A stretch of 55,420 nucleotides of DNA from Lentisphaerae bacterium ADurb.BinA184. GTDB taxonomy: Bacteria; Verrucomicrobiota; Lentisphaeria; Oligosphaerales; MVZH01. Location of the stretch: assembly GCA_002068325.1 (NCBI GenBank), contig MVZH01000002.1, forward strand, positions 1 to 55,420, read 5' to 3'. The notes beneath the pieces were generated by a model. The model ran no database searches. It was not told the origin of the DNA and was given only the letters and a program-made list of their open reading frames with translations. How positions within the stretch are numbered: position 1 is the stretch's first letter; every line of letters begins with the position of its first letter. Below are positions 11,323-44,440 of the stretch, in pieces. Made by a program: the position numbers and the translations under genes.

Positions 11323-11330
11323 ACGGCGGG

Positions 11331-11358: not shown

Positions 11359-11382
11359 GCGAGCCCGCGGAGTGCGGAAGGC

Positions 11383-11581: not shown

Positions 11582-11700
11582 CCCGAAGGGGCCGTGGTAT
11601 GTAGCCCCCGGTGCAACCGGGGGGGCGCCCCGTCACCCCATGCCGAGCGCCCCAAAGCGGGCGCGGGTGGTAACGATCGTGGATCGTCTGCTGTGGATCC

Positions 11701-11731
11701 CGGAGCCAACGGTCTCCGCCGGTCATGCCGG
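11701..11731 (+). repeat. REP-like hairpin element, copy 3 (diverged)
   Basis: CGGAGCCAACGGTCTCCGCCGGTCATGCCGGGAACGG aligns with copy 2, TGGAGCCGGCGGTCTCCGCCGGTAATGCCCGGAACCGG. Confidence 0.5.
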
Positions 11732-11756
11732 GAACGGCCAACCCCGAGCCGGCCCG

Positions 11757-14700
11757 TCACGTCGCGAGCGCGAGGAGCCAGTCGCGGTGCACGGCGAAAC
11801 GGACGGTTTGGCGGCGGCCGCCGGCGGCGTCGGCGATGATCCATGAGCGGTCGGGCTGCACGGCGGTGAGACGCCAGTTGGCGGCTCCGACCGTCAGGCC
11901 GACGCGGGCGGCCTTGGCCGCGGCCTCCTTGGCCACCCAAAGCTGGAGGAGCGGCGCCGCGCCCTCGACCGATCCGGTTTCCGCGAGTTTCATCTCGACG
12001 GGCGTGGCAATCTGTCCCGGCTCGAAATGCGGAGTCCGCAAAAGGGGCTCGAGGTCAATGCCGACCGGGCCGGGGCCGACCGCCGCGGCGGCGGCATGCC
12101 CCGAGTGCGCCAGGCTCACGGCGAGGGGCGGATGCCACGCGTCCGCGGATGCGGCCAGAGTCACCGCGGGGGCGCCGTTGGCCTCGTTGAAAACGGTGAT
12201 TTCGACCGGGTGGGGAAGGTGCCGTCCCTCGCCGCGGCGGCGGAGGGCGTCCAGCATCGCGTTCTTGACCGCGAGGCGCCCGCACAGCCACTGCAGGCGA
12301 CGGACGGGCGTCGTTTTGGCCGGCGGCATCTCCGCCGACTCGCGGACGGACAGGAAGAGGCTGCGTACGTGGGCCGTGCCGAGGCTGGCGAGGTCGTCGG
12401 CGGCGCTGAGCCAGCAGGCGGCGACATCCTCCGGCTGCCCGGCGAAATGCACCGGGGTGGCCAGCCGCATCTGCGTGGGCTCGCGCAGCGAGGTCACCAG
12501 GGCGGCGGACTCGGAGAGGATGGCGAGGGTCCATCCCCGGCCGCGCGCCCAGACGTGGCCGTCCCCGTCCTGGATCTCGAGGTCGTAGGTCATCTCCTTG
12601 CCGGGTGTGAAAGACGTGCGTTCGCCGTAGACGGGCAGGAGGCGTCCCGGGGGTGGCGGGGGGCGGTAGAACTCGATGGCTTCCATGGCCATGGGCAGGG
12701 CGAGCCGGGGCGGGACGGCGGAGGCGTGCAGCCCGGCGGCCTGCCAGGCGCCGTCGAGGAGCACCGGGTCGGTCAGCAGTGCAGGTGCCGACCCCCGCGT
12801 GAAGAGTCCGTCGGCCGGCAGGGACCGCAGCTCGGCGCGGAAGGTCTCCGGCCCCGCGGTCACCATCCGGCAGAGGCTCTGCAGCAGGGGACCGTGGAAG
12901 AGAAGCCCGCCGGTGTAGATGTCCGGCGCCCGCAGTGGCGACGGCGAGTCGTCGGCGGGGCGGGCAAAACGCGGCGTCACGGTCAGGCGGTAGCGTTCGC
13001 CAAAGAGGCATTCGGCGCTGAAGGCAGACTGGCCGTCGCGCTGGATTTCGCCGGCGACAAGCGTGAGCCCGTCGGCGGTTTCGGCGGGGCGGACGCGGAG
13101 CGTGAGCATGATCTCGTCGCAGTCCTCGAACGCCAACAGCTTGAGGGCGCGCACGCGCCGGAAGCCGGTCAGCCCCTGTCCGCGGGCCAGGAAGGCGGCG
13201 GCCTCGGCCAGCATTTCGAGGGCGAATGCGGCGGGGACGGTGGCCAGGCACTGAGCCGGCGGCTTGTAGTCGTGGACGAGGGCGAAGGCGTGGTCAACGA
13301 AACAGGGGAAATCGGCGAGCCGCAACGGGCACGCGAACGAGACCCAGCCGTCGGGGGCGCGGCCGAGGCAGTGCGTGATGAAGGGCATCCACGGCGGCGA
13401 TGGCTCACGGGCGGCGGCGCGCCCGCCGTGCGCCGCGGAGGCTGTCGCGGTTCCGGCCGCGTCTCCCGGCCACGGCTGTCGGTGAAGCGGGATCAGGGCT
13501 TCCGGGCTGCGCCGCGAGGGCGCGGCGACGGGCACCGCGGTCTCAAGGAGTCCCGCCAGGTTCACGCGGCAGCCGTTGACAAAGAGCTCGGCCGCGGCGC
13601 GCTGCAACTGGGTCAGGGGGTGCACGCCGTCCAAGTCGAGGGCGACGAAGGTCGCCGGGGCGGTGGGGGCGGTCCGGCTGGCCGGTGCTGCATCGCCCAA
13701 GGGGGCGGGAGAGGCGTCTGGCGTCGGCCCGCGGCGGTCTGGCGTCACGTCGTCCACGGCGGTTGTGCTGAACGAGCCCAGCCCGCAGTGCAGGAACAGG
13801 CGCGTGCCCTGGTCGCGGACCGTGCGCAGCGTCTGCCAGACGCGGGCGGGCCGGATGAGGTTGTCCGCGGCGGTCTCGGCCAGCGCGTCTTCCTGCACGT
13901 CGAACGGCCTGCCCGTCACCGAAGAGACGACCGCAGGGGCGGCGGGGCGTGGGTGGACGTGGCGGGCCACGAGGGCGCGCAGCCGTTCACGCAGGGGCAT
14001 CATCAGGGCGCTGTGCATCGGCGGGTAGGGCAGCCGGAGCGCGACACCCGCGCCGGCGGCCCGGACGTCGGCGACGAAGGCGTCAATCGCCGCGGCCGGC
14101 CCGCCGAGGCAGAACGTGACCGGGCTGATGTAAAGGGTGATGCAGACCGCGGGATGCTGGTCGAGGATGGTTCCGAGCTGTGCCTCACGCCCCTGGAAGA
14201 CCGCCGTCGTGCCGAGTGTGGACAGGTGGTACTCGGCGGCGGCGACCGGCCAGAGGTCGGCGAGCACCTCCGGCAGATCCAGGTGTCCGGCGGCGCCGAG
14301 GGCGGGGAGGTCGCCGATGGACTGGCCGAGGAAGCTGTCCGGCTCGACGCCGAGGCGGCGCGTCAGGAGCCAGCCGACCCAGTCGGCCATGAGTACGGTC
14401 GGCGGCACGAGGCTGCGGCGGTCGGGCGGCAGGTTGTCGAAGCGTAGGTTCCCGCCGTCCGCCGGGGCGGCGAGCGAGAAGCGGGCGCGCAGGCCGGCGG
14501 CCAGCCCGGGGGGGGCCGTTTCGGGCGGGGCGAGCAGCAAGCTGGTCGGCAGCGGGTCGTCCGGGTTGTGGTCGCGTGGCTCCTGCCCGTCGAGGAAACG
14601 GCGGACTTCCGGGAAGAGCATGGCGTGTGTGAGCAGATGTTCGGGCAGGTCGCCTTCGAGTCCGGGGTAGCCCACGCCGGGGAAGACGGCCGTGAGCCGC

Positions 14701-16220
14701 GGCGGCGCGGGCGTTGCGTCCCAGCCGAGGAAGACGTCCGCAACGGGCGGGGCGTCCGCATCGAGGCTGGCCAGGGCCGCATCCAGCAACCCGCACGCGC
14801 TCCCTGGCGCGGCGACGATGGCGGCGCGCACGGCTAGGCCGCCGGCGCTGGCGGCGGCCGGTGCCTCCGCGGCCAGCGCCGCGAACTCTGCGGCCGGCGC
14901 AGGGGATCCAAGGCGCGCCTGTGCGGCCTGCAACTGTGTACGGAGCGCGGCACGCGAATCCGCCGCGAAGGCGAGCAGTTCGGTGGGGCGTTCCAGCCCC
15001 GGCGCGGCGGGCCGGGTCGTCTCGTCGAGTGCTGCCTGGAGGAGGGCGCCGCCGACGTGTCCGGACGGGCCGCAGGCGAGGACGGCGGCGGTGCGGACTC
15101 CGCAGGCCGGGGGTTTGAGCCAAGGCCTGGCGCGCCGGCTGGTGTAGAAGCGGCTGCGGCACAGGGCCTCGCCCGGGGGCGCGGAACCCGGGGTGGGCGG
15201 CAGGATGCGGCAGGCGAGGGCGCGCGCCGTCTTGATCAGCGCCGCCAGCCCGGCCGCGTTGAGGGTCCAGCCAACGACGGGGGTCAGGGAGCCAATCGCC
15301 GTCGTGGCGGCTTCCGTGGTGCGGCCGCCGTACGCGTCCTGCAAGTCGGCGAGAACCCTGTCGTCAAGCCCGGGTGACACCCCGCCGGCCACCTCGATGT
15401 AGTCGGGGCACGCGCCGGCCCCGGCCGCATCGAGCGCGGCCCGGATTCCACTCCCGGCGCCGTCGCCGGAAACTGCGGACTCCGCAGACCCGTCGCCGAC
15501 GCCGGTGACAAGGGCGTGCACAGACTCGCCGCCGGCCGCGACGGTGGCGTAGGGCGCGAGGACGACGGCGCCGCCGCCCTCGCCGGGCAGAACGCCGGGC
15601 CGCGCTTCGGCCAGAAACTCGGGAAACCCCTGTTCGCAGAGGACTCCGTCCCTCCGCAACCGATGCCACCAAGCGGGGAGAGCCGGGCCGCTGACCCCGG
15701 CTAGGATGACGTGCCCGGCCGCACCCGCGCGAAGCCGTTGCGCCGCCGCGCGCAGCAGCGGGGCCAGGGCCGCGCCTTCAGACAAAGAGAACACGCGGAC
15801 AGCCCCGCCGATGCCGAGGGGCGCGGCGACTCCGGCGCGGACTGCCTCGACAGCGCCGGCGTCGGCCTCCCCGTCGTGCTCGCCGGCGATGAGCAGATCC
15901 GTCTGCGCCAGGCGGGCGGGCGACTCGGCCCCGGCGTCGCAGAGGGCGCGGACAACCAAGTCGCGCAACAGGGCCAGGTGCGGGTGGGAGCCGTCGTCAT
16001 CGAGGACGGGGGTACGCGGGTGCAGCCGGCAGGGAGTGGTGAAGAAGCCGCCGGTCACAGCGGCCGCAGGCACCGCCCCGCCGGCGCGTTCCGGCGGCAA
16101 CGGCCCCAGGAAGCGACGGCCGTTGACCACGCCGCGCCAGAAGGCCTCGAGGTCATGGGCGCCGGGGAAGCAGGCGCTCATTCCCACGATGGCCAGCGCG
16201 TTGTCGTTGGGGTTGGACAC
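11757..16220 (-). CDS. PKS / PUFA-synthase-like subunit B: inactive KS (CLF-like), AT-like, PKS-type dehydratase, C-terminal 4'-phosphopantetheinyl transferase
   Basis: A 1487-aa ORF with a GTG start. The N-terminus MSNPNDNALAIVGMSACFPGAHDLEAFW is a KS N-terminal signature. Domain motifs are listed in the sub-features. There is no ACP, KR or active KS, so this subunit must work with the 2371-aa subunit A. Confidence 0.85.
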   Translation of the reverse strand: MSNPNDNALAIVGMSACFPGAHDLEAFWRGVVNGRRFLGPLPPERAGGAVPAAAVTGGFFTTPCRLHPRTPVLDDDGSHPHLALLRDLVVRALCDAGAESPARLAQTDLLIAGEHDGEADAGAVEAVRAGVAAPLGIGGAVRVFSLSEGAALAPLLRAAAQRLRAGAAGHVILAGVSGPALPAWWHRLRRDGVLCEQGFPEFLAEARPGVLPGEGGGAVVLAPYATVAAGGESVHALVTGVGDGSAESAVSGDGAGSGIRAALDAAGAGACPDYIEVAGGVSPGLDDRVLADLQDAYGGRTTEAATTAIGSLTPVVGWTLNAAGLAALIKTARALACRILPPTPGSAPPGEALCRSRFYTSRRARPWLKPPACGVRTAAVLACGPSGHVGGALLQAALDETTRPAAPGLERPTELLAFAADSRAALRTQLQAAQARLGSPAPAAEFAALAAEAPAAASAGGLAVRAAIVAAPGSACGLLDAALASLDADAPPVADVFLGWDATPAPPRLTAVFPGVGYPGLEGDLPEHLLTHAMLFPEVRRFLDGQEPRDHNPDDPLPTSLLLAPPETAPPGLAAGLRARFSLAAPADGGNLRFDNLPPDRRSLVPPTVLMADWVGWLLTRRLGVEPDSFLGQSIGDLPALGAAGHLDLPEVLADLWPVAAAEYHLSTLGTTAVFQGREAQLGTILDQHPAVCITLYISPVTFCLGGPAAAIDAFVADVRAAGAGVALRLPYPPMHSALMMPLRERLRALVARHVHPRPAAPAVVSSVTGRPFDVQEDALAETAADNLIRPARVWQTLRTVRDQGTRLFLHCGLGSFSTTAVDDVTPDRRGPTPDASPAPLGDAAPASRTAPTAPATFVALDLDGVHPLTQLQRAAAELFVNGCRVNLAGLLETAVPVAAPSRRSPEALIPLHRQPWPGDAAGTATASAAHGGRAAAREPSPPWMPFITHCLGRAPDGWVSFACPLRLADFPCFVDHAFALVHDYKPPAQCLATVPAAFALEMLAEAAAFLARGQGLTGFRRVRALKLLAFEDCDEIMLTLRVRPAETADGLTLVAGEIQRDGQSAFSAECLFGERYRLTVTPRFARPADDSPSPLRAPDIYTGGLLFHGPLLQSLCRMVTAGPETFRAELRSLPADGLFTRGSAPALLTDPVLLDGAWQAAGLHASAVPPRLALPMAMEAIEFYRPPPPPGRLLPVYGERTSFTPGKEMTYDLEIQDGDGHVWARGRGWTLAILSESAALVTSLREPTQMRLATPVHFAGQPEDVAACWLSAADDLASLGTAHVRSLFLSVRESAEMPPAKTTPVRRLQWLCGRLAVKNAMLDALRRRGEGRHLPHPVEITVFNEANGAPAVTLAASADAWHPPLAVSLAHSGHAAAAAVGPGPVGIDLEPLLRTPHFEPGQIATPVEMKLAETGSVEGAAPLLQLWVAKEAAAKAARVGLTVGAANWRLTAVQPDRSWIIADAAGGRRQTVRFAVHRDWLLALAT
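11760..12323 (-). other. Integrated Sfp/AcpS-type 4'-phosphopantetheinyl transferase domain
   Basis: PVGIDLEPL is present (Asp1389 codon checked at 12054-12056), and LQLWVAKEAAAKA matches W-x-x-KEA-x-x-K. These are the two hallmark PPTase motifs. Confidence 0.7.
12471..13394 (-). other. PKS-type (double hot-dog) dehydratase domain
   Basis: LADFPCFVDHAFALVHDY...VPAAFALEM fits the H-x3-G/A-x4-P type motif; the His977 codon was checked at 13290-13292. The downstream LLTDPVLLDGAWQAAG fits the D-x3-Q motif. Confidence 0.6.
13776..14708 (-). other. Acyltransferase-like domain with variant nucleophile elbow GQSIG
   Basis: LTAVFPGVGYPG aligns with the FPGQGSQ start. FLGQSIGDLPALGAAG has Ser634, whose TCC codon was checked at 14319-14321. 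PYPPMHSALM aligns with the AFHS motif. No Arg was seen at the usual malonyl-carboxylate position. Confidence 0.5.
15036..16199 (-). other. KS-like domain lacking the Cys-His-His triad (chain-length-factor-like)
   Basis: At the position of the D-x-ACSS motif the sequence is VFSLSEGAALAPLL (no Cys). The EAHGTGT position reads YIEVAGGVSPG (no His). The GS-x-K-x-x-x-GH position reads IGSLTPVVGWTLNAAG (His replaced by Trp). Confidence 0.65.
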
Positions 16221-16293
16221 GGAACTGCCTGCCTCTGAGGTGCCTGCAAAACTCCCGCAAGCGCCGGTTTCATGTGTCAGGGTTCAGCACTTG

Positions 16294-16426
16294 ACGTTCG
16301 ACGTTCTGCGTTGGGCGTTCTGCGTTCTGCGTTCGGCGTTGAGCGTTCTGCGTTGAGCGTTCTGCGTTCGCCGTTCTGCGTTCTGCGTTCGCCGTTGGGC
16401 GCTCGCCGTTTGTCGTTCGTCGTTCA
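16294..16426. repeat. Heptamer tandem array, 19 units of CGTTCNN type (left arm)
   Basis: The hand parse is ACGTTCG ACGTTCT GCGTTGG GCGTTCT GCGTTCT GCGTTCG GCGTTGA GCGTTCT GCGTTGA GCGTTCT GCGTTCG CCGTTCT GCGTTCT GCGTTCG CCGTTGG GCGCTCG CCGTTTG TCGTTCG TCGTTCA. CAGGGTTCAG precedes it at 16278-16287. The array lies between the res stop (16563) and the subunit B start (16220). Confidence 0.9.
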
Positions 16427-16562
16427 TCTGGCCGCGAGGAATGAGTTCGCCCTGGCTGCGGACACCCAGGCCCAGTTCGAGCCGCACGTCTCCCGGCTCC
16501 GGCGTTGCCGGCGCTGCCGGGGATGTGTTCGCGGCCCGCGCCTGGGCCGGCCTGTTTGGGGG

Positions 16563-19229
16563 TCAGGCATCCCTGATAGCCGTTGTGATGGCGGAAAAGC
16601 CCCGCTCCGTCGGCATCACGAACAGGCAACGGCCGCCGCTGCGGGAGGCCCACACCGCGCCGACCGCCCGCTTCTCCTCGGCGTCGGTCCACAGGTGCGC
16701 GCCCTTGTACTCCACCACGAGAGAGCGGCCGTCCGTCAGCCGGCAGACGAAGTCGGGGTAAAACCAGTCCTTGGAAGTCTGCAGCCGGAACGACGTCGCC
16801 TTGCGCGCGAGGTTGCGCACCCAGAACTCCACCTCCGGGATCCCGTCGAGGAACTGCGCGCACTTGAACTCCTCCGTGGTGTTTCCGCCCGACGTGAGTT
16901 CCGCCAGCTCGCCCGGCTTCGGCCCGAAGTAGTGTTTCTTGAACTGGAAGCTCCCCTCGAACAGCCAGCTCGGCTCGTAGCTCATGGTTCGGAAGTTGAT
17001 GACCTTCTCGTCGCTGACCGCCAGGGGCGTGCCCGGGAGCAGGAACGCCTGGAACGCCGTGGCCCTCTCGGTCTCCCGGTGCTCCTGGATGCGGGCCTCG
17101 ACCTCGTCGCGCAGCCGGAACCGGTCGAGCGCCAGCAGGCCCACGTCCTCGATGCCGTGCCTCGCCATCAGTCCCCGGACGGCGTTCCGCAGGAAGGCCG
17201 CAGACTCACCGGCCGGGATGTCCCGGTGGTCGATGCGCTTGTCGAGCCAGGCGACGAGTCCCTCCAGCGTACACCCGCCAGTCGCCCCCAGCGCCAGCAC
17301 CTGCTGGTGCAGCCTGGCGACGAAATCGGCGTCCGGCACCTCCCGGAGCATGCTGGTCTGCACTTCCCCCTTCGTGCCGACGTCTACCAGGCCGGCGTAG
17401 CCCGCGGGCCGTTTCCGCGGATCGTAGTCTGCCCGGAGCGACGCGTCCTTGGTGCCGAGCCGCCACGGGTGTTCGAGGAGGAAGGTGCTTTCGAACTCGA
17501 ACAGGCCCCCCCCTTCGCGCACGCACAGGACCGGCACGGGGAAGTCGACCTTCCGTTCGAAGGGGGACGGCGCGCGCGTCGCGCCCGTGCCGCCGAACAC
17601 CCTCTCGGCCTCGCGCATGACGGCGACCGCCTCCTCGACCTTGCCCTTGCCGTCCTGCGACCTCACGCAGCTCGCCAGCTTCGCGGTCTCCGCCTGATCC
17701 AGCGGCACGAGCACCGTGATCTCGCCCGTCGCCGCGTCGACCTGCACCTTCCCGGCCAGCCCCGGCACCTGCGCCTGGGCCGCCGCCGCGTCGATGTCCG
17801 CCGGGGCGAGCCGCACCGTCCGCGGCTGGGCGCCGAGGGTCGGGGTGTTCGGCGGGATGGGGATGATGATGCGGGCGGCCTCGGCCGCCGTGAAGCCGTT
17901 GCTCTCCAGCGCGTCGCGCAGCTCCGCCAGGACCTCGCCAAGCGACGGGGAGACGGAGAAGACGTAGGAGCAGTTCAGGTCGGGGTGCCGCTTCGCCCGC
18001 GCGCCGGGGAGCCGCAGGACGCGCCCGACGATCTGCTCGATGGCCGTGGCCGACCGCGTCTCCCGCAGGCTGCAGAGCACGTAGGCGAAGGGGCAGTCCC
18101 AGCCCTCGCGCAGTTTCTGCACGGTGATGATGAAGCGCACGGGGGATTTCGACGAGGCGAGGTCCTCCGCGCCGGGCAGCTCGTCGAGGTTGCCGACGGA
18201 GATCTTCACCTCGTCCTTCGCGATGCCGAACTCGGCCACCAGCCGCTCGCGCAGGGGTTCGCACGCGTCCACCCGCTCTGCCTGGAGCAGCAGGACCGGC
18301 CGCAGGTACTCGGCGGTCGCCTGCGCCTCCGCCGCCGCGAGCCGCTCGAGGTCGCCCCGCAGCGTGACGGCCTCGGAGAGCAACTGGTCGCGCTGGCTGG
18401 GGTGCCGCGCAATGACGCGCAACGGCAGCTTGACCATGTCCGCCGCCTTCAGCTCCGCGGCCGAGACGTGGTGCAGCACGTTCGACGGGTTCTTGCTCCG
18501 CGCCGGCGTCGCCGTGAACTCGACGATGCACGACGGCTGCACGCTGCCGAGGGTGGCAAAGCTCAGGTCGGTGCGCGCGTTGTGGGCTTCGTCGACGATG
18601 ACGATCGGGCGGCGCAGCCGGAGCATGTTCACCAGCGACGGCTTCGGCTTACCGTCCACGCCGGGCAGCAGCTCGGCGAGCACGTTGAGCAGGTGCTCCG
18701 CGAACGCGCCGTTCTGGTCGTAGACTTTGCGCCCGGTCGTGTCCTCGACGCGGAAGCACTGGATCGTGGACACGATGACCACCGTCTGCCCTTCCGCGGT
18801 GGCGCGCGACAGCCGCAGAGCCTCCTCGATCGTCACGACCTCGACGGCGCCGCACGCCAGTTCCAGGGCGCGCCGGTAGGCGTGACGCGGGTCGCGTAGC
18901 GCCTCGGCGGTCTGGTTGAGGATGGTGTTGCTCGGCACCAGCCACAGCACCACGGCCCGCTCCGCGTGCAGCAGGTCCTGCATCGCGATGCCGGCGGCGT
19001 GGCAGGCGAGCAGCGTCTTGCCGCCGCCGGTCGGAACGCGCAGGCAGACGTAGGGCATCCCCGGCGTCAGCCCCGCCATGTGGACGGGGATGTACGGCAC
19101 GGGCTGGCGCCCGTTGCGCAGTTGCACTGCTTGGAAGGCCGCGTCGGGCCGTCCGTCCTTGGCGCACTGGCGGAAGAAGTCGGACAGCGAGCCGAGCACG
19201 CGCGTCTGGTAATCCTTGAGCGTGATCAT
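16563..19229 (-). CDS. res: Type III restriction enzyme, Res subunit (SF2 helicase plus PD-(D/E)XK nuclease)
   Basis: RVPTGGGKTLLA is the Walker A / motif I and IVIVDEAHNA is the DEAH box. The C-terminal YPDFVCRLTDGRSLVVEYKG is a PD...E-x-K nuclease motif. The start overlaps the mod stop by 4 nt (ATGA). Confidence 0.85.
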   Translation of the reverse strand: MITLKDYQTRVLGSLSDFFRQCAKDGRPDAAFQAVQLRNGRQPVPYIPVHMAGLTPGMPYVCLRVPTGGGKTLLACHAAGIAMQDLLHAERAVVLWLVPSNTILNQTAEALRDPRHAYRRALELACGAVEVVTIEEALRLSRATAEGQTVVIVSTIQCFRVEDTTGRKVYDQNGAFAEHLLNVLAELLPGVDGKPKPSLVNMLRLRRPIVIVDEAHNARTDLSFATLGSVQPSCIVEFTATPARSKNPSNVLHHVSAAELKAADMVKLPLRVIARHPSQRDQLLSEAVTLRGDLERLAAAEAQATAEYLRPVLLLQAERVDACEPLRERLVAEFGIAKDEVKISVGNLDELPGAEDLASSKSPVRFIITVQKLREGWDCPFAYVLCSLRETRSATAIEQIVGRVLRLPGARAKRHPDLNCSYVFSVSPSLGEVLAELRDALESNGFTAAEAARIIIPIPPNTPTLGAQPRTVRLAPADIDAAAAQAQVPGLAGKVQVDAATGEITVLVPLDQAETAKLASCVRSQDGKGKVEEAVAVMREAERVFGGTGATRAPSPFERKVDFPVPVLCVREGGGLFEFESTFLLEHPWRLGTKDASLRADYDPRKRPAGYAGLVDVGTKGEVQTSMLREVPDADFVARLHQQVLALGATGGCTLEGLVAWLDKRIDHRDIPAGESAAFLRNAVRGLMARHGIEDVGLLALDRFRLRDEVEARIQEHRETERATAFQAFLLPGTPLAVSDEKVINFRTMSYEPSWLFEGSFQFKKHYFGPKPGELAELTSGGNTTEEFKCAQFLDGIPEVEFWVRNLARKATSFRLQTSKDWFYPDFVCRLTDGRSLVVEYKGAHLWTDAEEKRAVGAVWASRSGGRCLFVMPTERGFSAITTAIRDA

Positions 19230-20890
19230 GTCACCCTGATCTCGTAAGGGGTTTGCCGGACGACGATGCGCTCCGCCTGCAGACGGTCAGGCCCGAGGAG
19301 GCAGCCGGCGCAGTAGATCACCTTCTGTCCGTCGAATGGCGGAAGCTGGGCCAGCACGGCGCGGGTCAGGACGTTGCCGCCGGTGGCGCTCTTGTCGCCG
19401 AGGATGCCGTTGTAGAGCAGGTAGACGCCGACGCCCCGGCACTCCCCGAGGAAGGCGGATGTCGTGACGCGTTCCCGCGGCAACGGCTCGCCCGTTTCGC
19501 TGAAGAAGACGTGCCGCGCGAGGTCGGCAAAGGAAACGGTCTCGCGAATCCTGCCCCCCTCGTCGAACAGCGGCTCGCCCAGTTCGCAGAAGCGGAAACC
19601 ACCACCCAGACCAGGCACAGCCTCACCTTTCACACGCGAGTAGCCCTGTGCCACCCGGCGCACGCGCTCTGCCGTCACCTCGCGCGCAATCTTTGACTCC
19701 ATCTCCACGAGGATGAACCTGCGCTTGCCACCATCTTGCTGGTTGAGCTTCAGGACTGCATGCCCTGTGGTGCCGGAACCGGCAAAGGAATCGAGGACCA
19801 AGTCATCCGAGCGACTGGCTGCCTGGATTAGCGAGGCGACTAGCGATATGGGCTTGGGGTAGGCAAACACCTTGGTTCCGAAAATCTCTTGCAGCGCTTT
19901 CCCCCCCTCCTGATTCATGCCTGAACCCAGAATCGTCAAGTCCCACTCTGCGGCATCTTCGGCTGCACCTTGAAGCGCATTCACACTCTCGACCCAACTT
20001 GACACAGGTTTCGGCTTGGCAGTGTCAGGGTCGTAGTAGGTCTTGTAGCGAGGCCGCTCCATGCGTCGCTCCGGGAAATCGTCGGGCCAGATGACCAACT
20101 CCTTCGCAATCACCTCTTGCATGGTCTGTGGGAAGAAGCGCCACACGCGTTCCGGGTTCGGCTGGTACACCTTCCCTGTGCGTGGATTGGTGATGGGGAA
20201 GAACTGGTTCGGCCGTGCTTCTCGCCCCATGCCGACTGTCAGGTCCGTGCTGGCATACCTCCCCCGCGCATCAACAAGCGGATACGATTCGACGCCCTTC
20301 TCCAAGCCGTACAGCAGGGCACTTCCCGCCTCCAACGCGTAGCACATCACGTACTCGTGGTCGATTGACAGTGGGGTCCCCCGCATGGCGCTTGAGCTGC
20401 GCCGTTTCCAGACAAGCGTCCCCAGGGCATTCTCTCTGCCGAAGATCTCGTCGAGAACAAGACGGAGTGCACCCTCTTCCGTTTCGTCCATGCTGACGAA
20501 AAGGACCCCCTCACGTCGGAGGAAGAGGCGCAGCAGCGCCAATCGAGGGTACATCATGCACAGCCACTTGTCGTGGCGGGAAAGGTCCTCGCCCTCCCTG
20601 CCGACAACCTTGCCAAGCCAGTCCCGAATGAGCGGGCTGTTGACATTGTCGTTGTATACCCAGCTCTCGTCACCTGTGTTGTAGGGCGGGTCGATGTAGA
20701 TGCACTTCACCTGGCCGGCGTAGTAGGGCAGCAGAGCCTTGAGCGCGACGAGGTTGTCGCCCTGGACGATCAGGTTGCCGCTGCCCGGGTCGCCGTACCC
20801 GAGTTCGGGCACGTCCTTGAGCAGGCGAAAAGGCACCTGCTGGTGGTGGTTGACCACCGCTTCCTTTCCGATCCAGTTCAGCGTCGGCAT
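19226..20890 (-). CDS. mod: Type III DNA methyltransferase, Mod subunit (beta-class N6A/N4C MTase)
   Basis: Motif IV, IYIDPPYN (DPPY at 20681-20692), precedes motif I, LDSFAGSGTTGHA (about 19769-19795). That order is typical of Type III Mod. The gene sits upstream of res and is translationally coupled to it. Confidence 0.85.
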   Translation of the reverse strand: MPTLNWIGKEAVVNHHQQVPFRLLKDVPELGYGDPGSGNLIVQGDNLVALKALLPYYAGQVKCIYIDPPYNTGDESWVYNDNVNSPLIRDWLGKVVGREGEDLSRHDKWLCMMYPRLALLRLFLRREGVLFVSMDETEEGALRLVLDEIFGRENALGTLVWKRRSSSAMRGTPLSIDHEYVMCYALEAGSALLYGLEKGVESYPLVDARGRYASTDLTVGMGREARPNQFFPITNPRTGKVYQPNPERVWRFFPQTMQEVIAKELVIWPDDFPERRMERPRYKTYYDPDTAKPKPVSSWVESVNALQGAAEDAAEWDLTILGSGMNQEGGKALQEIFGTKVFAYPKPISLVASLIQAASRSDDLVLDSFAGSGTTGHAVLKLNQQDGGKRRFILVEMESKIAREVTAERVRRVAQGYSRVKGEAVPGLGGGFRFCELGEPLFDEGGRIRETVSFADLARHVFFSETGEPLPRERVTTSAFLGECRGVGVYLLYNGILGDKSATGGNVLTRAVLAQLPPFDGQKVIYCAGCLLGPDRLQAERIVVRQTPYEIRVT

Positions 20891-21225
20891 GTGTACTGTC
20901 TCTATTTCTGCAACCAGTCAAACCTGATCCTGTCCTGTCAGCGAAACGACGAGAGAACAGTGCCCAGCAAAATGTCGGTGGCCGCCTCGTCACGACTCAG
21001 AGCCAACGGTCCACCCCTGGAAACGCACGGCTCGACGCCTTGTGGCTCAGCCCTGCGCAAACGCAACACTGGTAAAATGGCGTGCGAAGGCGGTTTTCCC
21101 AGCGCGGGCGGGCCTCTCGTGGATCAGAGTTTGACAGGCGTGCGGGCCCACGGCTGTATCTCAAGACGAGTGAATGGTTGCGTGCGTCGAGAACCCCGGC
21201 GCGGCCGGGCAAGACGGGGCAAAAG

Positions 21226-21435
21226 AGGAACGGCGAACGCAGAACGCAGAACGGCGAACGCCCAACGCCGAACGCCGAACGCAGAACGCAGAACGGCGAA
21301 CGCCCAACGCCGAACGCCGAACGCAGAACGCCGAACGAAGAACGCAGAACGCAGAACGCCGAACGCAGAACGCCGAACGAAGAACGCAGAACGGCGAGCG
21401 ACGGACGCCGAGCGACGAACGGCTAACGCCGGACG
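21226..21435. repeat. Heptamer tandem array, 30 units of NNGAACG type (right arm, inverted relative to 16294-16426)
   Basis: The parse runs AGGAACG GCGAACG CAGAACG CAGAACG GCGAACG CCCAACG CCGAACG CCGAACG and so on. The 42-bp block at 21240-21281 is exactly duplicated at 21282-21323. The array overlaps the last codons and the stop (21423-21425) of the four-helix-bundle gene. Confidence 0.9.
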
Positions 21436-21866
21436 TCGCAAGGGGGAGAGTCGTGGCAGTCGTACAGCCCGCGCTCTTCCTTGGCCAGCTTGGCGGAGGC
21501 GGTGCGGATGCTACTCTTGAAGATGCGGATCAAGGCATCCGTTTCCTGCAACAGCGGCTCGACGGTAGACGGTGGCTCAACCAGCGGCACCCGCGCGACC
21601 AGGCCCAGTGCCCGGAGCGATTCGCGCAGTTCCTTGAGGCAGATTCCGAGCTTGTGTACGAAGTCGGCGCGAGATTCAGCCGCCTCCGCCTCACCGTGGT
21701 TGAAGTAGGGGCTCGTGCCGCACCGGAGGAGCTGTCCACCGACATGGTTGCCAGCCCGGGTCTTGACGAGCTTTTCGGTCAGGTCAATGATGGCCGCCGA
21801 GTACTCCAAGAGCCGCTCCTCCAAATCCCAGGTTCTGCCGCCACTGTGCCCTCGTGTGCCCTGCAT
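21423..21866 (-). CDS. Four-helix-bundle protein (23S rRNA intervening-sequence protein / Avd family)
   Basis: A GAGGAG Shine-Dalgarno lies 11 nt upstream. ...LLEYSAAIIDLTEKL...GNHVGGQLLRCGTSPYFNHGEAEAAESRADFVHKLGICLKELRESLRAL... matches the characteristic pattern of PF05635/TIGR02436-type proteins (L-x-RS-x-TS...N-x-x-E...DF-x-x-KL-x-I-x-x-KE-x-x-E). Confidence 0.8.
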   Translation of the reverse strand: MQGTRGHSGGRTWDLEERLLEYSAAIIDLTEKLVKTRAGNHVGGQLLRCGTSPYFNHGEAEAAESRADFVHKLGICLKELRESLRALGLVARVPLVEPPSTVEPLLQETDALIRIFKSSIRTASAKLAKEERGLYDCHDSPPCDVRR

Positions 21867-21883
21867 CGCCCAGTGCTCCTCAC

Positions 21884-21914
21884 TTCGCCGTTCTGCGTTC
21901 AGGGTTCAGGCAGG
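21884..21914. repeat. Short heptamer run upstream of the four-helix-bundle gene (CGTTC type, then AGGGTTC type)
   Basis: TTCGCCGTTCTGCGTTC (21884-21900) is the perfect reverse complement of GAACGCAGAACGGCGAA at 21242-21258 and at 21284-21300. It is identical to 16367-16383. It is followed by AGGGTTCAGG (21901-21910). Confidence 0.85.
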
Positions 21915-21970
21915 AATCGAGTCCAGGCGTCAGCCCCGGAAACATCGTGCGGTTCCCGACTGCGGTTCTT

Positions 21971-22006
21971 CCTGAACCCTGACACCCTGAACCCTGGCAC
22001 CTGAGC
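21971..22006. repeat. Heptamer run CCTGAAC CCTGACA (C) CCTGAAC CCTGGCA CCTGAGC
   Basis: CCTGAACCCT (21971-21980) is the exact complement of AGGGTTCAGG (21901-21910). The same CAGGGTTCAG word sits at 16278-16287 next to the left array. Confidence 0.8.
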
Positions 22007-22039
22007 AGCTACCCTAGCACCCGAAACCTGTATGCTCCG

Positions 22040-22062
22040 CTTGCAGAACCGCGTTCTGCAAG
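22040..22062 (-). terminator. Perfect 10-bp stem / 3-nt loop hairpin 12 nt after the stop of PKS subunit A
   Basis: The sequence is CTTGCAGAAC-CGC-GTTCTGCAAG. No U-tract follows on the minus strand, so its status as an intrinsic terminator is uncertain. Confidence 0.4.
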
Positions 22063-22073
22063 CAGCTCGTCCA

Positions 22074-25000
22074 TCATTCCATCATTGCACGATCCTGTGG
22101 GACGCCTGTGATCTGCGACAGCTTGTCCAGTGTGGCGCCGATGACGACCTCGACCGGGCCGGAGCGGTCGCGCAGTTCGCGCAGCAGGGCCTGGGCGGCG
22201 GCGGCCAACGGCAGGGGCTCGATGCCGCGCGCCCGCATCAGGGCCTGCAACGGCGCGTGCACCATGCCGCCTGCGAGCGGGCCCCAGTTGATCGCCTTGA
22301 CCGTCACGTGCGGCCAGCGGCCGGCGAGGGCCTCGGCCAGCTTGTTGAGGCATTCGTTGGCGGCGGCGTAGTCGGCCTGGAAGGCGTTGCCGAAACGGGC
22401 CGCGGCCGATGAGAAGAACACCAGGCCGCGCAACGTCTCCGGCCGCAGGCTCCCGGCCAGGACCTGAGCCGGGATCAGTTTGCTCTCGATGACCTCGGCC
22501 AGCGCGTCGGGCGGGCGGGAGGTGAGAGGGCCGTCGTGGAGGATCCCGGCGGCATGGATGACCAGGTCCAGCCGTCCGAAGCGCGCGTACAGCGCGTCAA
22601 GGAACGCGGCCAGCCGGCCGGCGTCGCGGCCGTCCACGGCATGGTATTCGACGCGGGCCCCGGCTGCGGACAGCGCCGCGATCGTGTGTCGAATGTTACG
22701 CTGGCGGAGGAGGTTGCGGAGGATGGGTTCGACGTGCGCGGGCGGGGGGGCGGCGCCTGCGGCGCGGGCTTCGGCGATGAGGGCCTGGCGCAGGCTGGCC
22801 TCGTCCTCGATGCCGTGCGTCGCCGCGGGTTCCGGGCCGTCCGGGAGTGGGGTGCGGCCGGTGAGGATGAAGGTGGCGGGCGCCTGCGTGGCCAGCTCAG
22901 CCAGCATGGTGGCGGTGACGCCGTACGCCCCGCCGACGGCGAGCACGACGCTGTCCGCACGTACGTCGAGCCCGCGGTTGCCGGGGGTTGTCTCGGTGAG
23001 CACGGGGCGGACGAAGCGGTCCGTCCGCACCCCGGTCTCGGTTCCGGCGGCGTCGCGGGCGGCGGCGAGCAGGCCGATCAGGGTCTGCCCTGGCGGCGCG
23101 TCGGGCGCGACGTCTATGATCGCGGCTCGTGCCTCCGGCCACTCGCGGGCCAGGGACTTTGTGAAGCCCGCGGCGGCGGCCTGCGGCCAGCGGAGATCGG
23201 CGGCGCGGGAGAGGCCGAACGTGCCATCGAGGCCGGTGACGGTCAGCAGCGTGGCCGGACGGCCGGCGCGCCGCAGCTCCGGCTCGAAGACGGCGGCCAC
23301 GTTGAAGAGCGCGGCGGTCAGCTCCGTGGCCTGCCTGGCGGGCGGCGCCTCGCCGCCGGCCGGGGCGAAGACAAGGGGGAGCAGGTTGAGAAGGGTTCCG
23401 ACCGAGAACGCCGGATCGCTGCGCAGGGCCTCGGCGGCGGCGGTCAGCGAATCCCGCGAAAGGAGGTCCGCGGTCAGCCTGCGCTCGCCGACACGCCGGA
23501 ATGCCTCGCCATGGGAGAGCCGCCAGACGGGGACCGGGGCCGCACCGTCCTCGAAGCCGGGGAAGCGCGCCAGGCGCGGGGAGTCGCCGACGATCAGCAC
23601 GCCGCGCCCGTCGGCCCCGGCGATGATGGCATCCAGGGACTCGTCGCTGTCAAGCCGGACGGGCTGGGCGCTGAGCACTTGCCGTTGCACCGTGGCCGGC
23701 GGCGGGGCGGGCGAGGGCGAGAGGGCGGGGGTGTCGCGGCCGGCCGGTTTCGTCGCCTCCGGGGATGCCGGCGAGAGGGCGCGGCGGCGGTCGTAGTAGG
23801 CGACGATGTCGTTGAGGGTCTTCAGCTGCATGAAATCAACCAGGAGGTCCTCCTGCGGCCGGCCTTCGCCCAGCAGCACAGGGTGATAGGGTTTGAGCTG
23901 GGCGAACAGCTCCATCACCTTGATCGAATCAATGCCCAGCCCCGATTCGAGCGGCAGGCTGGGATCGAGCATGTCCTTCGGGTAGCCGGTGCGGGCGCTG
24001 AGCGCTTCGATCAGATCGGCGCGGAACGTCGCCGTCGGCGGCGTGGCGCCGGCGTCGGGCGTGGCGACGGGGACGGAAGGCGGCGGCGCGGTCGGGGCGG
24101 GCGCAGGCGCGGGGGCAACGGGCAACGGCGCGAGTTCCGGCGGCAGCGCGATCGCCGGCAGTTGCGGCACGGGCGCGGCCGGGAGCACGGCATCGCCGAG
24201 GACGCTGTCCAGCCCGGCCGGCGCGGCGGCTCTCGCGGGACGCCGGGAACCCGCTTCCGACCGCGCCGCGAAGTCGGCCCAGGGGACGGTGTCGGTGAGC
24301 GTGATGACGTGGCGGGTCGGGGTGGGGCGCCGGGCGGCCTCCTCGTCTTTGAGGAGCGTGGCCAGCGGCACGGGTTCGAGGCCGCGGTTGGCGAACCACG
24401 GCGACAGCTCGATCTCGGCCCCTTCGGCGACGAGCGCGGCCAGCAGCCGGGCCAGCCCGATGCGGCTGTCGGAGTCGCCGGTATCCAGCGGCAGGCAGCG
24501 GTGCGGGCGTCCGGCGAGGATCTCGTCAATCAACCGCGACAGGATGTTGCCGGGGCCGAGTTCGACGAACAGCCGCGCCCCGTCGTCATGCATGCGCTCG
24601 ATCATGGCCGCGAACGCGACGGGTTCGGTGATGTGCCGGCACAGCAGGTGCGCCATCCTGCCTGCCGACCCCTCGTACGGCGCGGCGGTGACATTGCTGT
24701 AGACCGGAATCGCGGGCCGCCCGAAGGCAAGGCCGGCCTGGAAGTCCGCCAACTGCCGCGCCGCGGGCCGCATGGCGGGACTGTGGAAGGCGCCGCTGAC
24801 GGCCAGGCGCACGCAACGTACACCCTGCGCCTCGAACCGCGCGCAGACCGCGGCCAGCCCCGCCTCCGGCCCCGAGACGACGACCTGCCGCGGCGCGTTG
24901 AAATTGGCGGCGCCGACACCGCCCCCGACCTCGGCAAGAACCGCGGCCACCGTCTCGCGGTCGGCCATGACCGCCGCCATGCCGCCCGGGATCGCGGCCG

Positions 25001-28000
25001 CCGCCGCCTGCATGACCCGGCCGCGGCGCGTGCACAGCCGGATCAGATCGTCGAAGGCCAGCACGCCCGCGGCGTGCAGCGCGGACAGCTCGCCGAAGCT
25101 GTGCCCGCCGGCCATCGCCGGGCGCAGGCCGTAACCGCGCAGGGTCTGCCAGGCCAGCGCCTCCGCCACCGCCAGCGCGGGCTGCGCGCAGTCGGCCGAC
25201 CGCAGGGTCTCGATGCGCTGCAGAATCTCCTGCGGGGTGAATCCGGCCGGAGGGTAGAGAACCGCCGACAGCGCGGTGGGAAGCTCGGTCGCGGCGGTGG
25301 CGTCGGCCGTCTCGATGAGGCGGACGGCGTCGCGGTTGCCGAGGGCGAGCTCGCGGAACATATCGATCCGCTGTGACCCCAGGCCGGGGAAGACGACCGC
25401 CACGCATGGCGGCGCGGCCAGTGCGCCCTCTCCCCAGGCGCAGCCTTCGACGCCGCCGGGATCTCCCGCGTCCAGGCGGGCGACGACCTCGGCCAGGCGG
25501 GTGCGCAGCGTCGCCACGTCCGGCGCCGTCAGGGCGAGTCGTACGGCGGCCGCCTTGCCCGAGGCGCGGCGGCGGTGCGACTCGTCAAGATGGCAGCTGG
25601 CGGCGAGGCGTTCGAGGCTGGGCAGAGCCTCGGCGGCGAGGGCGGCGTTCAGGGTTTCAAGCCGCTCCCGCAGCTCGCCCCGCGACGGCGCCTGCCAGGC
25701 GAACAGTTCGACCGGCGGCGCCGACAGGTTCGGCGGCGGCGGCTGGGCCGGGGAGGCGAACTCCTCAAGAACAAGGTGGTAGTTGGTGCCGCCGAAGCCG
25801 AAGGCGCTGACGCCGGCCCGGCGCGGGTGATCCCCGCGGCGGATCCACGGCCGCAACGCCGTGTTGATGTAGAAGTGGCTCCCTGCGGCCAGCCCGCGCG
25901 GGTTGGGGGTGCGCACGTTCACCGTCGGCGGGAGCACCTGTTGCGAGAGCGCCAGCGTGGCCTTGATCAGGCCCGCCAGGCCGGCCACCGTCTTGGTGTG
26001 CCCAAGGTTGGACTTGACCGAGCCGACCGCGCAACGCCCCGGCCCGCCCGCCGTGGCGGGGACAAACTCGTCCAGCGCCTGCAGCTCGATGCGGTCGCCG
26101 AGGCTGGTGCTGGTGGCGTGGGCCTCGATGAGCTCGACGGTGTCGGGGGCCAGGCCGGCGTCGTCGTACGCCCTCTGCAACGCCAGCTTGATGGATGCCT
26201 TGGCCGGGGCGGTCAGGCTGGCCTCGCGGCCGTCGCTGGAGAATCCCACCCCGCGGATGACGGCGTAGATGCGGTCGCCGTCGCGCACGGCGTCGTCGAG
26301 GCGTTTGAGGAGGACGGCGGCGGCGCCCTCGGCCAGCACGATGCCGTCGGCGCTCTCGTCGAACGGGCAGCTCACGTCGCGCGGGGAGAGGGCCTGGGTG
26401 CGCGAGAAGGCCGTGTAGGCGAACGGGCCCATGCCGCGGTCGACGCCGCCGACCAGGACGGCGTCGCTGGCGCCCGCCCGCAGGAGGGCCACGGCGTGCG
26501 CGAGGGCGGCCAGCGAGGAGGCGCAGGCCGCGTCAATGATGAGGTTCTCGCCGTGCAGGTCGAGCAGATTGGCGACGCGGCCGGCAGTCAGGTTGGGCAG
26601 GAAACCGGGGAAGCTGTCCTCGGTCCACTCCGGCAGGACGGCGCGGAAGGCCGCCAGGACCTGCTCACGGGCGCGCTCGCCGAGAGCCGTCTGCGACAGC
26701 AGGTGCGGCAGGCTGCTGCGGAGGCCGTAGCCGAGCCCGAGGTTGTCCTGGCCGGAATTGGTGAATACGGCCGAGACGCGGCTGCGCTCCAGGGGCCGCG
26801 AGCCGTAGCCGGCGTCTTCAAGGGCGCGCCGGGCCACCACCAGCGACAGCAGCTGCACCGTGCTGATGGCCTTGACGGCGACTGGCGGAATCCGGTACTC
26901 GACGGGATCGAAGACGACGGGGTCGAGGAAGCTGCCCTTGCGGCTGTAGATGTGTTCGGGGGCCTTGCGGTCGGGGTCATAGTAGAGGCTGGCGTCGAAC
27001 AGCTCGGCCGGGACGTCCCGGATGGCGTTGAAGCCCCGCTGGATGTTCTGCCAGTATTCGCGCGTGCCGGGTGACTGCGGGAAGAGGGCGCTCATGCCGA
27101 CGATGGCGATGGGGGCGGGTGGCGGGCGCGTCCGTGCGGCCGGGGGAGGGCGGGGCGACCGTCCCGCCCAGGCGTCAAGGCGCCCGGCCGATTCGGTGCA
27201 GAGGCCGTGATGCAGCTCGGCGAGCGTCAGCGGCGTGTCACGGAGGATCGCGGCCTGCCCGAGCATGAACAGTCCCTGGTCGCGCTGGATGTCGGGCGGG
27301 GCCGCAACCAGGGCGGCGGAGTCGTCGAGAAACCGTTGCGGCTCTTCGGCGCCCTCCTCGGCGGCGGCGCGGCGCACCCCCTTGGCGGCGAGGCGGAGCC
27401 GGCCGAGGGTGAGCTTTTCGAGGCGGAGGCGGGTTTCGCCGTCGCCGAGCCCGGCCTCGATGAGGCGTTGGCGGCTCTCATCGAACGCGTGGGCGAAGGG
27501 GGTGTCGGCGCAGCGCATTTCGTGTCCCGGGCCGGTGCACAGCAGCCGGGTACGGGTGCAGGCGAGGGCGGTCGCCTGGAACGATGCGGTCAGCGCGCCG
27601 GTCTTCACGCACTCGCGGGTGAAAAGGTATGGGGTTCCCAGCAGTAGTCCGACCTTGACCCCGCGTTCGGCCAGCGGGGCCGCCAGCACGGCCAGCATGG
27701 CGGCGGAGAGGCGGTCGTGGAGCCCGCCGGCGAAGAGGACTTCGAGGTCGGCGGCTGTGTGGTCGGGCAGCGCGGCGACGATGTCGAGGACGTGGCGCCA
27801 CAGCGGGAAGGCGAACAGGGGGCCGACATGGCCGCCGCACTCGCGGCCCTCAAAGACGAAGCGCCGGCAACCGGCGGCGAGGTGGTCGCGGAACAGCCCC
27901 GGTGTGGGCGCATGGAGGAAGGCTTTGATGCCAGCCCCCTCGAAGGCGGCGGCCTGATCGGGCCGGCCGCCGGCCAGGATGACGGCCCGCGGCTGTGCTT

Positions 28001-29189: not shown

Positions 29190-29267
29190 ATCCCACTCGC
29201 AACGGGGCCGCGGTTCGGTGACGTCAGGCCCGCACCATACGTGGCCGGACGGACGGTGTCAATCGGG

Positions 29268-29291
29268 TGAGGCTCCTGCAGAACCCCGCGG
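29268..29291 (+). repeat. Dispersed repeat TGAGGCTCCTGCAGAACCCCGCGG (copy 1)
   Basis: It matches 30406-30430 (TGAGGCTCTTGCAGAACCCCCGCGG) with one mismatch and one 1-nt indel. Weaker similarity (GACCTCCGT-containing segment) continues for about 70 nt. Confidence 0.55.
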
Positions 29292-29441
29292 CCCGTTGAA
29301 GCCGGTCCGCCAGCCTGGGTGCGTACCCGTTGGTGTACCGACCTCCGTCGGCCCCGGGGCGACTTTCCCCGCTGCACGGGGAAGGTTCGGCAAGAACCTC
29401 GGGTGGTCTTGGGGGGAGGGCCGCACACGGTTGGACCGGGC

Positions 29442-44398: not shown

Positions 44399-44440
44399 GG
44401 CCTAGGCGGATGTCTGCTCGCGCCTACCCCCCTTCCCGCC

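Follow-up and report, generated by a model that had tools for sequence, protein, structure and literature searches.

The subject of this report is a small gene set between inverted arrays of heptamer repeats on contig MVZH01000002.1 of Lentisphaerae bacterium ADurb.BinA184, of which positions 1 to 55,420 were analysed (the window). The gene (21423–21866, minus strand) encodes a 147-aa four-helix-bundle protein of the S23p family, also referred to as the 23S rRNA intervening sequence (IVS) protein or Avd-fold family. The comparison with relatives is best explained if each S23p/TIGR02436 gene is passed on and spread as one unit with a pair of inverted arms, which are built from short repeats in tandem and in most cases from heptamers.

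The gene, its repeat arms and the surrounding island

Upstream of the gene lies the 5' arm B (21884–21900, minus strand; GAACGCAGAACGGCGAA), which comprises 2.5 heptamer units and ends 17 nt before the ATG, with a GAGGAG motif resembling a Shine–Dalgarno sequence located between the arm and the start codon. The homologue P0002, whose N-terminus matches that of the window protein, supports the ATG at 21866 as the start. On the other side, the 3' arm B' (21228–21430, minus strand) consists of about 29 units, which read CGTTCNN on the minus strand and GAACGNN on the plus strand, and which were delimited by Tandem Repeats Finder (TRF) with a period of 7, 14 or 42. A preliminary description of the window, made from the sequence alone, had reported perfect 17-bp inverted repeats around the gene and had placed its stop codon and last codons inside a heptamer array. 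Both statements were borne out: string comparison showed that the 17-mer TTCGCCGTTCTGCGTTC at 21884–21900 is the exact reverse complement of 21242–21258 and 21284–21300, and the stop codon and last codons of the open reading frame (ORF) fall within the degenerate end of B'. Around the gene, the B/B' inverted repeat is perfect over 17 nt and extends to 24 nt at 92% complementarity.

The 42-bp duplication reported within the array (21240–21281 and 21282–21323) is likewise exact, the direct repeat in fact running for 56 nt at a 42-nt offset. Its attribution to slippage or unequal crossing-over agrees with a metagenome contig (L003, JGI sample 3300010429), which contains exactly one 42-nt (6-unit) array copy fewer than the window, matches the array region exactly in all other respects and shows one mismatch over the 3387 nt upstream of the array. 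The 42-nt difference represents either a natural copy-number polymorphism or a short-read assembly collapse.

A second inverted pair is located immediately upstream of arm B. The outer array A (21971–22001, minus strand; two copies of GGTGYCAGGGTTCAG read on the minus strand; TRF period 15, 2.1 copies) is separated by a 60-nt loop from the inner A' arm (21901–21910, minus strand; CCTGAACCCT on the minus strand), and the two close a gene-less hairpin. As previously described, this pairing is perfect over its core, AGGGTTCAGG at 21901–21910 being the exact complement of 21971–21980 by string comparison, and the hairpin reaches −49.6 kcal/mol (z = −2.1).

The preliminary description did not mention that the arrays extend much further. 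Array A also pairs with a distal A' arm (16274–16287, minus strand; GTGTCAGGGTTCAG on the plus strand), which is an exact 14-nt complement of 21972–21985, and a distal array B (16295–16425, minus strand), inverted relative to B', repeats GAACGNN about 19 times on that strand and contains the 17-mer TTCGCCGTTCTGCGTTC again, at 16367. Between B' and distal B lies a complete type III restriction–modification (R-M) operon, also absent from the preliminary description, composed of mod (19226–20890, minus strand; Pfam PF01555, PADLOC MTase_III 4.5e-171) and res (16563–19229, minus strand; Pfam PF04851, PADLOC REase_III 5.3e-127). Along the minus strand the order is therefore A, the 60-nt loop, A', B, the four-helix-bundle gene, B', mod, res, distal B and distal A'. 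The 14-nt outer inverted repeat formed by A and distal A' closes the whole 5.8-kb island between two co-oriented polyketide synthase (PKS) genes (22074–29189 and 11757–16220), and the island can be drawn as nested stems: A with distal A', A with inner A', B with B' around the gene, and B' with distal B around the R-M genes. The pattern GAACGNNGAACGNNGAACG (three consecutive GAACGNN units, up to one mismatch) was matched 37 times in the window, where chance alone would give 0.02 matches; every match falls within 16295–16425, 21228–21400 or 21889–21907, and none elsewhere in the 55 kb. The GC content of the R-M operon is 0.60–0.65, compared with at least 0.70 in the flanking PKS genes; the operon may stem from horizontal transfer, perhaps with a hairpin loop as its insertion site, and is either cargo of the element or a bystander.

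The four-helix-bundle protein

The assignment of the window protein to the 23S rRNA IVS/Avd family, made earlier from the sequence alone, was upheld by profile and structure comparisons. The TIGR02436 family hidden Markov model (HMM), whose cut-off is 24 bits, matches with a score of 63.6 bits (E = 1.7e-17). PF05635, at 30 bits, falls slightly short of its gathering score (33.8) and is precomputed for nearly all homologues of the window protein; by these sequence matches, membership in the TIGR02436/PF05635 family, which comprises 10,555 clusters at 50% identity, holds. The subfamily profile retrieved Protein Data Bank (PDB) entry 2RLD (E = 1.5e-17). An AlphaFold monomer model (mean pLDDT 89) contains four helices, and in a Foldseek comparison it was closest to 2RLD (TM-score 0.90), followed by Xcc0516/2GSC (0.83–0.85) and Avd (4DWL, 8UB7; about 0.8), so that the predicted fold is a four-helix bundle like those of 2RLD and 2GSC. 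The family motif has been published as GxxRxxxSxxxNxxE (PMC3936711). In the window protein the spacing is G-x3-R-x3-S-x3-N-x2-E, with one residue more between G and R than in the published consensus; in an alignment of homologues (A1), G44, R48, S52 and E59 are invariant and N56 nearly so.

The window protein is presumably pentameric, as its relatives are: 2RLD contains five chains, chains A–E of 2GSC were matched, and Xcc0516 is described as a homopentamer in work cited in PMC4990558. No PADLOC defence model matches the four-helix-bundle protein of the window. A scan of the window revealed no promoter or terminator on the strand of the gene, the scan having assumed a sigma-70 consensus that may not be that of the host.

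Association of the gene with inverted arrays across relatives

The preliminary description had proposed that the flanks of homologues be searched for heptamer arrays, and the outcome was strongly positive, inverted arrays being found systematically around homologues. The survey set consisted of the best 80 loci obtained by tblastn alone, with a subfamily profile against contigs representing one genome per species (53–73% identity), and included Verrucomicrobiota, Lentisphaerota, Kiritimatiellia, Desulfobacterota, Planctomycetota, Nitrospinota and Chlamydiota. Of the relatives, L056 and L064 belong to Akkermansia metagenome-assembled genomes. Seventy-six loci were usable, each with at least 200 nt on both sides of the gene. 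A period-7 array occurs no more than 200 nt from the gene in all 76, and on both sides in 59 of them. Upstream and downstream arrays are reverse complements of each other. Near the gene there are 5.2 arrays per kb, compared with 0.24 per kb elsewhere, a 21-fold enrichment. The survey returned neither of the two patterns that had been named in advance as speaking against the association, namely family copies devoid of flanking arrays and arrays equally common beside unrelated genes.

The repeat unit of the subfamily follows the logo S-A-A-C-R-T-Y (GAACATC, GAACGTC, CAACGTC, etc.) and is conserved across phyla, the window GAACGNN being a GC-rich version of it. Typical arms measure 4.4–4.8 or 5.2–6.0 units (31–40 nt), and several loci contain window-like expansions to 20–34 units, with large ones in L013, L014, L066 and L081. 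Gaps between inverted period-7 array pairs are bimodal, falling either below 100 nt or at 400–500 nt. This geometry was found to predict the gene: in a blind test, inverted period-7 pairs of other units (GTGTCAG, ATTTGTG, AATTTTG and TGTCAGT), 360–500 nt apart, enclosed unannotated divergent TIGR02436 genes in four of four cases, the encoded proteins matching with E = 1e-21 to 1e-35. Nine further four-helix-bundle ORFs, recognized by HMM and phmmer searches of all ORFs in the loci, each possess inverted arrays of their own (9/9), with a period of 7 or sometimes 8. Paralogues in one genome carry different repeats, and both arms match within any one element. Where genes other than the four-helix-bundle gene lie between arrays in the 80 loci, they are ordinary host genes situated between two adjacent elements.

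The same gene-plus-inverted-array layout is present in the finished genomes of Anabaena sp. 90, Picosynechococcus PCC 7003 and Gemmatirosa, which rules out an assembly artefact. The layout is only partial on the Pseudanabaena galeata plasmid pPg_01 (L094, 1280–2080), where a downstream array of ten AAAGCCA units is direct rather than inverted with respect to sixteen upstream AAAGCTA units and the inverted partner, TAGCTTT, is found at a greater distance upstream. Inversion is thus not a universal feature of the layout. In cyanobacterial plasmids (L089, Anabaena sp. 90 pANA02; L091, Picosynechococcus PCC 7003; and L094), copies are located inside cas operons in co-orientation, on pANA02 between cas6 and cas4 and in Picosynechococcus between cas10 and cmr3. 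The S23p/TIGR02436 family is already known from both rRNA IVSs and cas loci, and its published link with CRISPR loci may reflect element insertion rather than Cas function.

The arrays also leave a trace in protein databases. Among 1.8 billion protein representatives, 12 of 15 inspected over-long gene calls of the subfamily carry array-encoded peptides such as NIERRTSN or CWMLDVE at their termini, and many of the gene calls P0125–P0167 extend into arrays, giving spurious 7-residue-periodic end peptides such as NIERRTSNAQRRT, HPTSNIQHPTSN, CWMLDVE and MFDVGCSMFDV. These array-extended calls are an annotation artefact, and the periodic peptides could serve as a marker for finding elements. In six Desulfobacterota loci (L031, L038, L040, L043, L033 and L088), AGGAGG stands before the left arm, whose heptamers can be read as a 12-codon ORF (ATG AAC ATC GAA CAT CGA ACG TCC AAC ATC GAA CGT TGA, translated as MNIEHRTSNIER*), which in L031 ends in a stop codon overlapping the four-helix-bundle ATG (ATGA). 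The window has no equivalent of this ORF, which could represent a leader peptide with translational coupling.

Dispersed and decayed copies

In addition to the gene-bearing elements, gene-less arrays are present in related loci. In three Desulfobacterota metagenome-assembled genomes, doublets of 125–135 bp, comprising both arms and part of the 3' untranslated region of the full element, occur at several sites with unrelated flanks. Copies in L049 and L053 retain remnants of the ORF C-terminus, and intermediate decayed copies are known as well. The gene-less doublets arose through internal deletion of full elements, and their pattern is that of a dispersed non-autonomous derivative comparable with miniature inverted-repeat transposable elements (MITEs). 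The combination of terminal inverted repeats and dispersed copies with unrelated flanks belongs to these Desulfobacterota relatives; the window itself has one gene-bearing copy. A comparison of L047 with L073 and L086 for doublet polymorphism was confounded by differing gene order.

In four Desulfobacterota loci (L038, L040, L043 and L049), the heptamer element is nested in a further inverted repeat (AGCGCTAAGTTGTTTTT ... AAAATAACTTAGCGCT). The arrangement resembles that of the window, where B/B' lies within A/A', and suggests insertion into the loops of existing hairpins.

Relation to 23S rRNA intervening sequences

Intervening sequences are insertions at helix tips within a 23S (or 16S) rRNA gene, and ORF-bearing examples in 23S rRNA occur in Leptospira, Coxiella burnetii, Xanthomonas and Brucella. 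Among the relatives of the window gene, the copy in Azospirillum lipoferum 4B (plasmid) lies inside a large subunit (LSU) rRNA gene (Rfam RF02541) and is hence a genuine 23S rRNA IVS; about five inverted heptamers (CAGAGGA/CGGAGGA) stand on either side of its ORF. The IVS of C. burnetii encodes a protein of the same family and possesses a 28-bp stem of terminal inverted repeats that is cut by RNase III in vitro, and two to three tandem GACAGAT heptamers, varying in number between strains, extend from its 5' cleavage site (PMC4990558). Taken together, these two layouts identify the gene-in-hairpin arrangement of the window as an IVS architecture outside an rRNA gene. The preliminary view that the module could not be assigned to a described class of element is thus not sustained, the architecture being that of the ORF-bearing 23S rRNA IVS.

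A probable free-standing IVS-type element in a PKS operon

We consider it reasonably probable that the window locus is a free-standing IVS-type element lodged in a PKS operon spacer, that it is probably read through from the operon and that RNase III probably processes its arm stem. According to this model, the element would be transcribed by read-through from the host operon, and its arms would pair into an imperfect double-stranded RNA stem. As both arms are tandem repeats, pairing would be possible in any 7-nt register, and the stem would tolerate array expansion and contraction such as the 2.5 versus 29 units seen here. Host RNase III would cut the arm stem, as in the rRNA-borne members, thereby freeing the four-helix-bundle mRNA and splitting the cistrons on either side from each other. 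More speculatively, the pentameric protein would bind its cognate arms, typically of about 4.5 to 5.5 units. RNase III processing has been published for rRNA-borne members only (PMC4990558), and for free-standing copies, including that of the window, we infer both read-through and processing by analogy.

Gene orientation is consistent with this model. The four-helix-bundle gene shares the direction of the gene upstream of it in 56 of 73 loci (p = 5e-6), and that of the gene downstream in 48 of 67 (p = 5e-4). The median distance from the end of the nearest upstream ORF to the gene match is 141 nt, and that from the gene match to the start of the nearest downstream ORF is 184 nt. This co-orientation, with which the window and cas-operon copies agree, suggests dependence on host read-through transcription, as for rRNA IVSs. 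The predicted local duplexes of the window are also more stable than those of shuffled sequences: −56.2 compared with −39.3 ± 4.7 for the 5' arm B with the 3' array B', −34.3 compared with −17.4 ± 3.4 for array A with distal A', and −237.8 compared with −119 ± 7 for B' with distal B.

Several results weigh against the model. The whole 791-nt element folds no better than shuffles (z = 0.02), which is why local duplex energies were used, and the arms of the window are very unequal (17 nt versus 203 nt, or 2.5 versus 29 units). Across loci, arm mismatches show no excess of the G.U type over the A.C type on the sense strand (120 versus 139, p = 0.26), the energies of sense and antisense duplexes show no difference (42 versus 35 loci, p = 0.34), and the order of unit variants is mirrored between arms only weakly (mean z = 0.49). 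Given the lack of a G.U excess and of a strand difference in energy, selection on sense-RNA pairing is not separable from selection on a motif or on DNA symmetry. With respect to mobility, no transposase or other mobility enzyme is encoded in or next to the element, and the aligned ends display no recognizable target-site duplication. A metagenome scan with the upstream PKS C-terminus did not detect an empty site for the island, whose insertion is thus an inferred event; it returned one PKS relative of 44% identity, non-orthologous and of different architecture, whose genes abut without arrays. Given that neither a transposase, a target-site duplication nor an empty site was found, mobility is deduced from distribution only. 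No homologue was found in phage records or IMG/VR. The mobile, recombinogenic or RNA-structure-controlled nature that was originally suggested for the module has indirect support in all three respects, and these are live hypotheses.

Alternative roles of the arrays

A possible, if less probable, account is that the arrays are cognate binding sites of the four-helix-bundle pentamer, in RNA or DNA and with roughly one unit per protomer, either beside or instead of forming a pairing stem. Such sites could serve autoregulation, or could maintain or spread hairpin elements, in parallel with the repetitive extragenic palindromic (REP) sequences and REP doublets (REPINs) associated with RAYT proteins (REP-associated tyrosine transposases), or with the arrays of subterminal binding sites at transposon ends. 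The sequence of the unit, beyond its complementarity, is conserved across phyla among proteins of about 60% identity, and paralogues in one genome have different units whose arms always match within the element; both observations point to sequence-specific recognition. The modes of arm length are 4.4–4.8 and 5.2–6.0 units, relatives crystallize as pentamers, and Avd binds a specific RNA stem-loop. Furthermore, motif recognition agrees better than strict pairing with the missing G.U enrichment and with a unit order that is only weakly mirrored, and gene-less doublets are dispersed with unrelated flanks. On the other hand, arms vary in length between 2.5 and about 34 units, the units of some elements are 8 nt long, no catalytic activity able to move DNA is known from the family, and conservation of the unit could reflect recent horizontal transfer. 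Cognate binding is compatible with the IVS-type reading and may be what ultimately underlies the repeats.

It is rather unlikely that the arrays are mainly recombination substrates, undergoing slippage, inversion, and cassette capture or exchange, which would account for the R-M operon between them. This operon, with a GC content below that of its flanks, is indeed bracketed by B' (21228–21430) and the inverted distal B (16295–16425), the island is closed by the 14-nt outer inverted repeat, and recombination would fit both the 42-nt copy-number difference between samples and the large expansions in L013, L014, L066 and L081. However, the non-bundle genes between arrays in the 80 loci are host genes between adjacent elements, and the R-M pair may be likewise; moreover, no second arrangement of the island was seen in four metagenome contigs, and the 42-nt difference could be an assembly collapse.

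Two further explanations are very improbable and were rejected. The heptamer arrays might be a generic intergenic feature, like the cyanobacterial short tandemly repeated repetitive (STRR) sequences, a notion to which the arrays at 44212–44510 of the window, where no four-helix-bundle gene is present, and the gene-less arrays in related loci lend some colour, but coincidence is contradicted by the presence of arrays in 76/76 loci with 21-fold enrichment, by the tracking of protein subfamily by the S-A-A-C-R-T-Y unit across phyla of different GC content and by the blind tests in which arrays predicted the gene, and GAACG-type arrays are confined to the island within the 55-kb window. The locus is equally poorly explained as the remnant of a diversity-generating retroelement (DGR) with an orphan avd, for although the fold is Avd-like (4DWL and 8UB7, TM-score about 0.8), the protein matches TIGR02436 and not the Avd equivalog model, no homologue is found in the phage collections, and, as the preliminary description had observed, there is neither a reverse transcriptase among the immediate neighbours (PKS, mod and res genes within about 5 kb) nor a pair of template and variable repeats (TR/VR) in 11000–30000, where a direct-repeat search gave only the heptamer arrays and weak matches of 41–51 nt at 76–81% identity.

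Beyond the window, it may tentatively be proposed that TIGR02436 genes with inverted heptamer arrays constitute a very large, cross-phylum class of self-propagating elements, of which IVSs are the best-known subset. Each pentamer would recognize about five of its own heptamers and, together with host RNase III or recombination functions, would drive the processing and spread of gene-bearing and gene-less copies in a RAYT/REPIN-like manner, with hairpin loops as preferred landing sites. If hairpin loops do serve as landing sites, both the nesting seen in the window and the location of IVSs at rRNA helix tips would be explained.

Significance

The protein family, its occurrence in rRNA IVSs and cas loci, and the heptamers of the Coxiella IVS are already known. 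What the S23p/IVS protein does, and how rRNA IVSs arose and move, have been standing questions since 1993. In full-text literature, searched also with the repeat sequences, the Coxiella IVS was the only link found between heptamer arrays and the S23p gene family. The same literature, which excludes subscription journals and so allows for a prior description, yielded no account of a family-wide rule by which these genes, inside or outside rRNA, are bracketed by inverted subfamily-specific arrays, nor of the gene-less derivatives or the co-orientation bias.

If the gene and its inverted heptamer arms do form one unit with subfamily-specific repeats, the arrays become a candidate ligand and the function of the protein becomes directly testable. 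Such a unit would also explain many heptamer repeat arrays in bacterial genomes, the presence of four-helix-bundle genes inside cas and other operons, and mis-called proteins with array-encoded end peptides such as 'NIEHRTSNIE' or 'CWMLDVE'. The array signature offers a simple route to finding such elements and their decayed copies.

Other repeats in the window

Two further repeat regions were noted. A second heptamer complex, which lacks a four-helix-bundle gene, lies at 44212–44510 between genes for a pyruvate phosphate dikinase-like protein and a class II aldolase. It is composed of GCAAATA units (44212–44238) with the inverse CTATTTG (44441–44481) and of ten GGTGGAC units (44325–44395) with the approximate inverse GCCGTNT (44480–44510), and the resulting order D-C-D'-C' is pseudoknot-like, not nested. 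Downstream of the second PKS gene, the region 11360–11760 contains the short repeats CGTAGGT, ACCGGTG and AGGCACGA, as well as a 43-nt direct repeat (11456–11498 and 11693–11735) with 81% identity.

Comparison with known systems

The four-helix-bundle protein of the window resembles the Avd proteins of DGRs in fold (TM-score about 0.8). Avd is a pentamer that binds a stem-loop RNA in these systems (bioRxiv 10.1101/2023.10.23.563531), the structured RNA being encoded next to avd. Unlike Avd genes, the window gene has no adjacent reverse transcriptase or TR/VR pair, and its product does not reach the Avd equivalog model.

The tandem heptamers of cyanobacteria and Beggiatoaceae (STRR; TAACTGA repeats, PMC4679880) have been described as direct repeats and possible translational regulators, and text searches of this paper gave no mention of S23p, four-helix-bundle or intervening-sequence genes. 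Like the arrays described here, these repeats are intergenic tandem heptamers of variable copy number, often situated a short distance before a start codon; Cyanobacteria and Bacteroidetes both contain them, and their horizontal spread is suspected. The window-type arrays differ in that they come as inverted pairs around a specific gene family.

The gene-less doublets of the relatives are similar to MITEs in that they keep both arms and recur, amid unrelated flanking sequence, at several sites and in several genomes. They differ from MITEs in that no transposase or target-site duplication was identified and in that their arms, instead of being unique terminal inverted repeats, consist of repeats in tandem. 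REP/REPIN sequences and RAYTs share with the elements a small gene between inverted short repeats, dispersed gene-less hairpin doublets and a cognate repeat for each gene lineage. RAYTs are HUH/Y1 nucleases with DNA-cleaving activity, and REPs are single imperfect palindromes, whereas the four-helix-bundle family has, to our knowledge, no catalytic function and its repeats are tandem heptamer arrays, so that the likeness is one of functional analogy only.

The 23S rRNA IVSs are a further known system with which the window element can be compared. It differs from them in lying outside an rRNA gene, in the spacer of a PKS operon; no Rfam family reaches threshold in the window, in agreement with the absence of rRNA reported in the preliminary description. 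Further differences are the strong inequality of its arms (2.5 versus 29 units), its nesting in a second inverted pair and the sharing of an array with a type III R-M operon. In common with 23S rRNA IVSs, it encodes a protein of the S23p/PF05635/TIGR02436 family, is of similar size (about 450–650 nt), carries its gene in sense orientation with respect to the host transcript, and places that gene between terminal inverted arms of tandem heptamers that are variable in copy number and capable of forming a stem.

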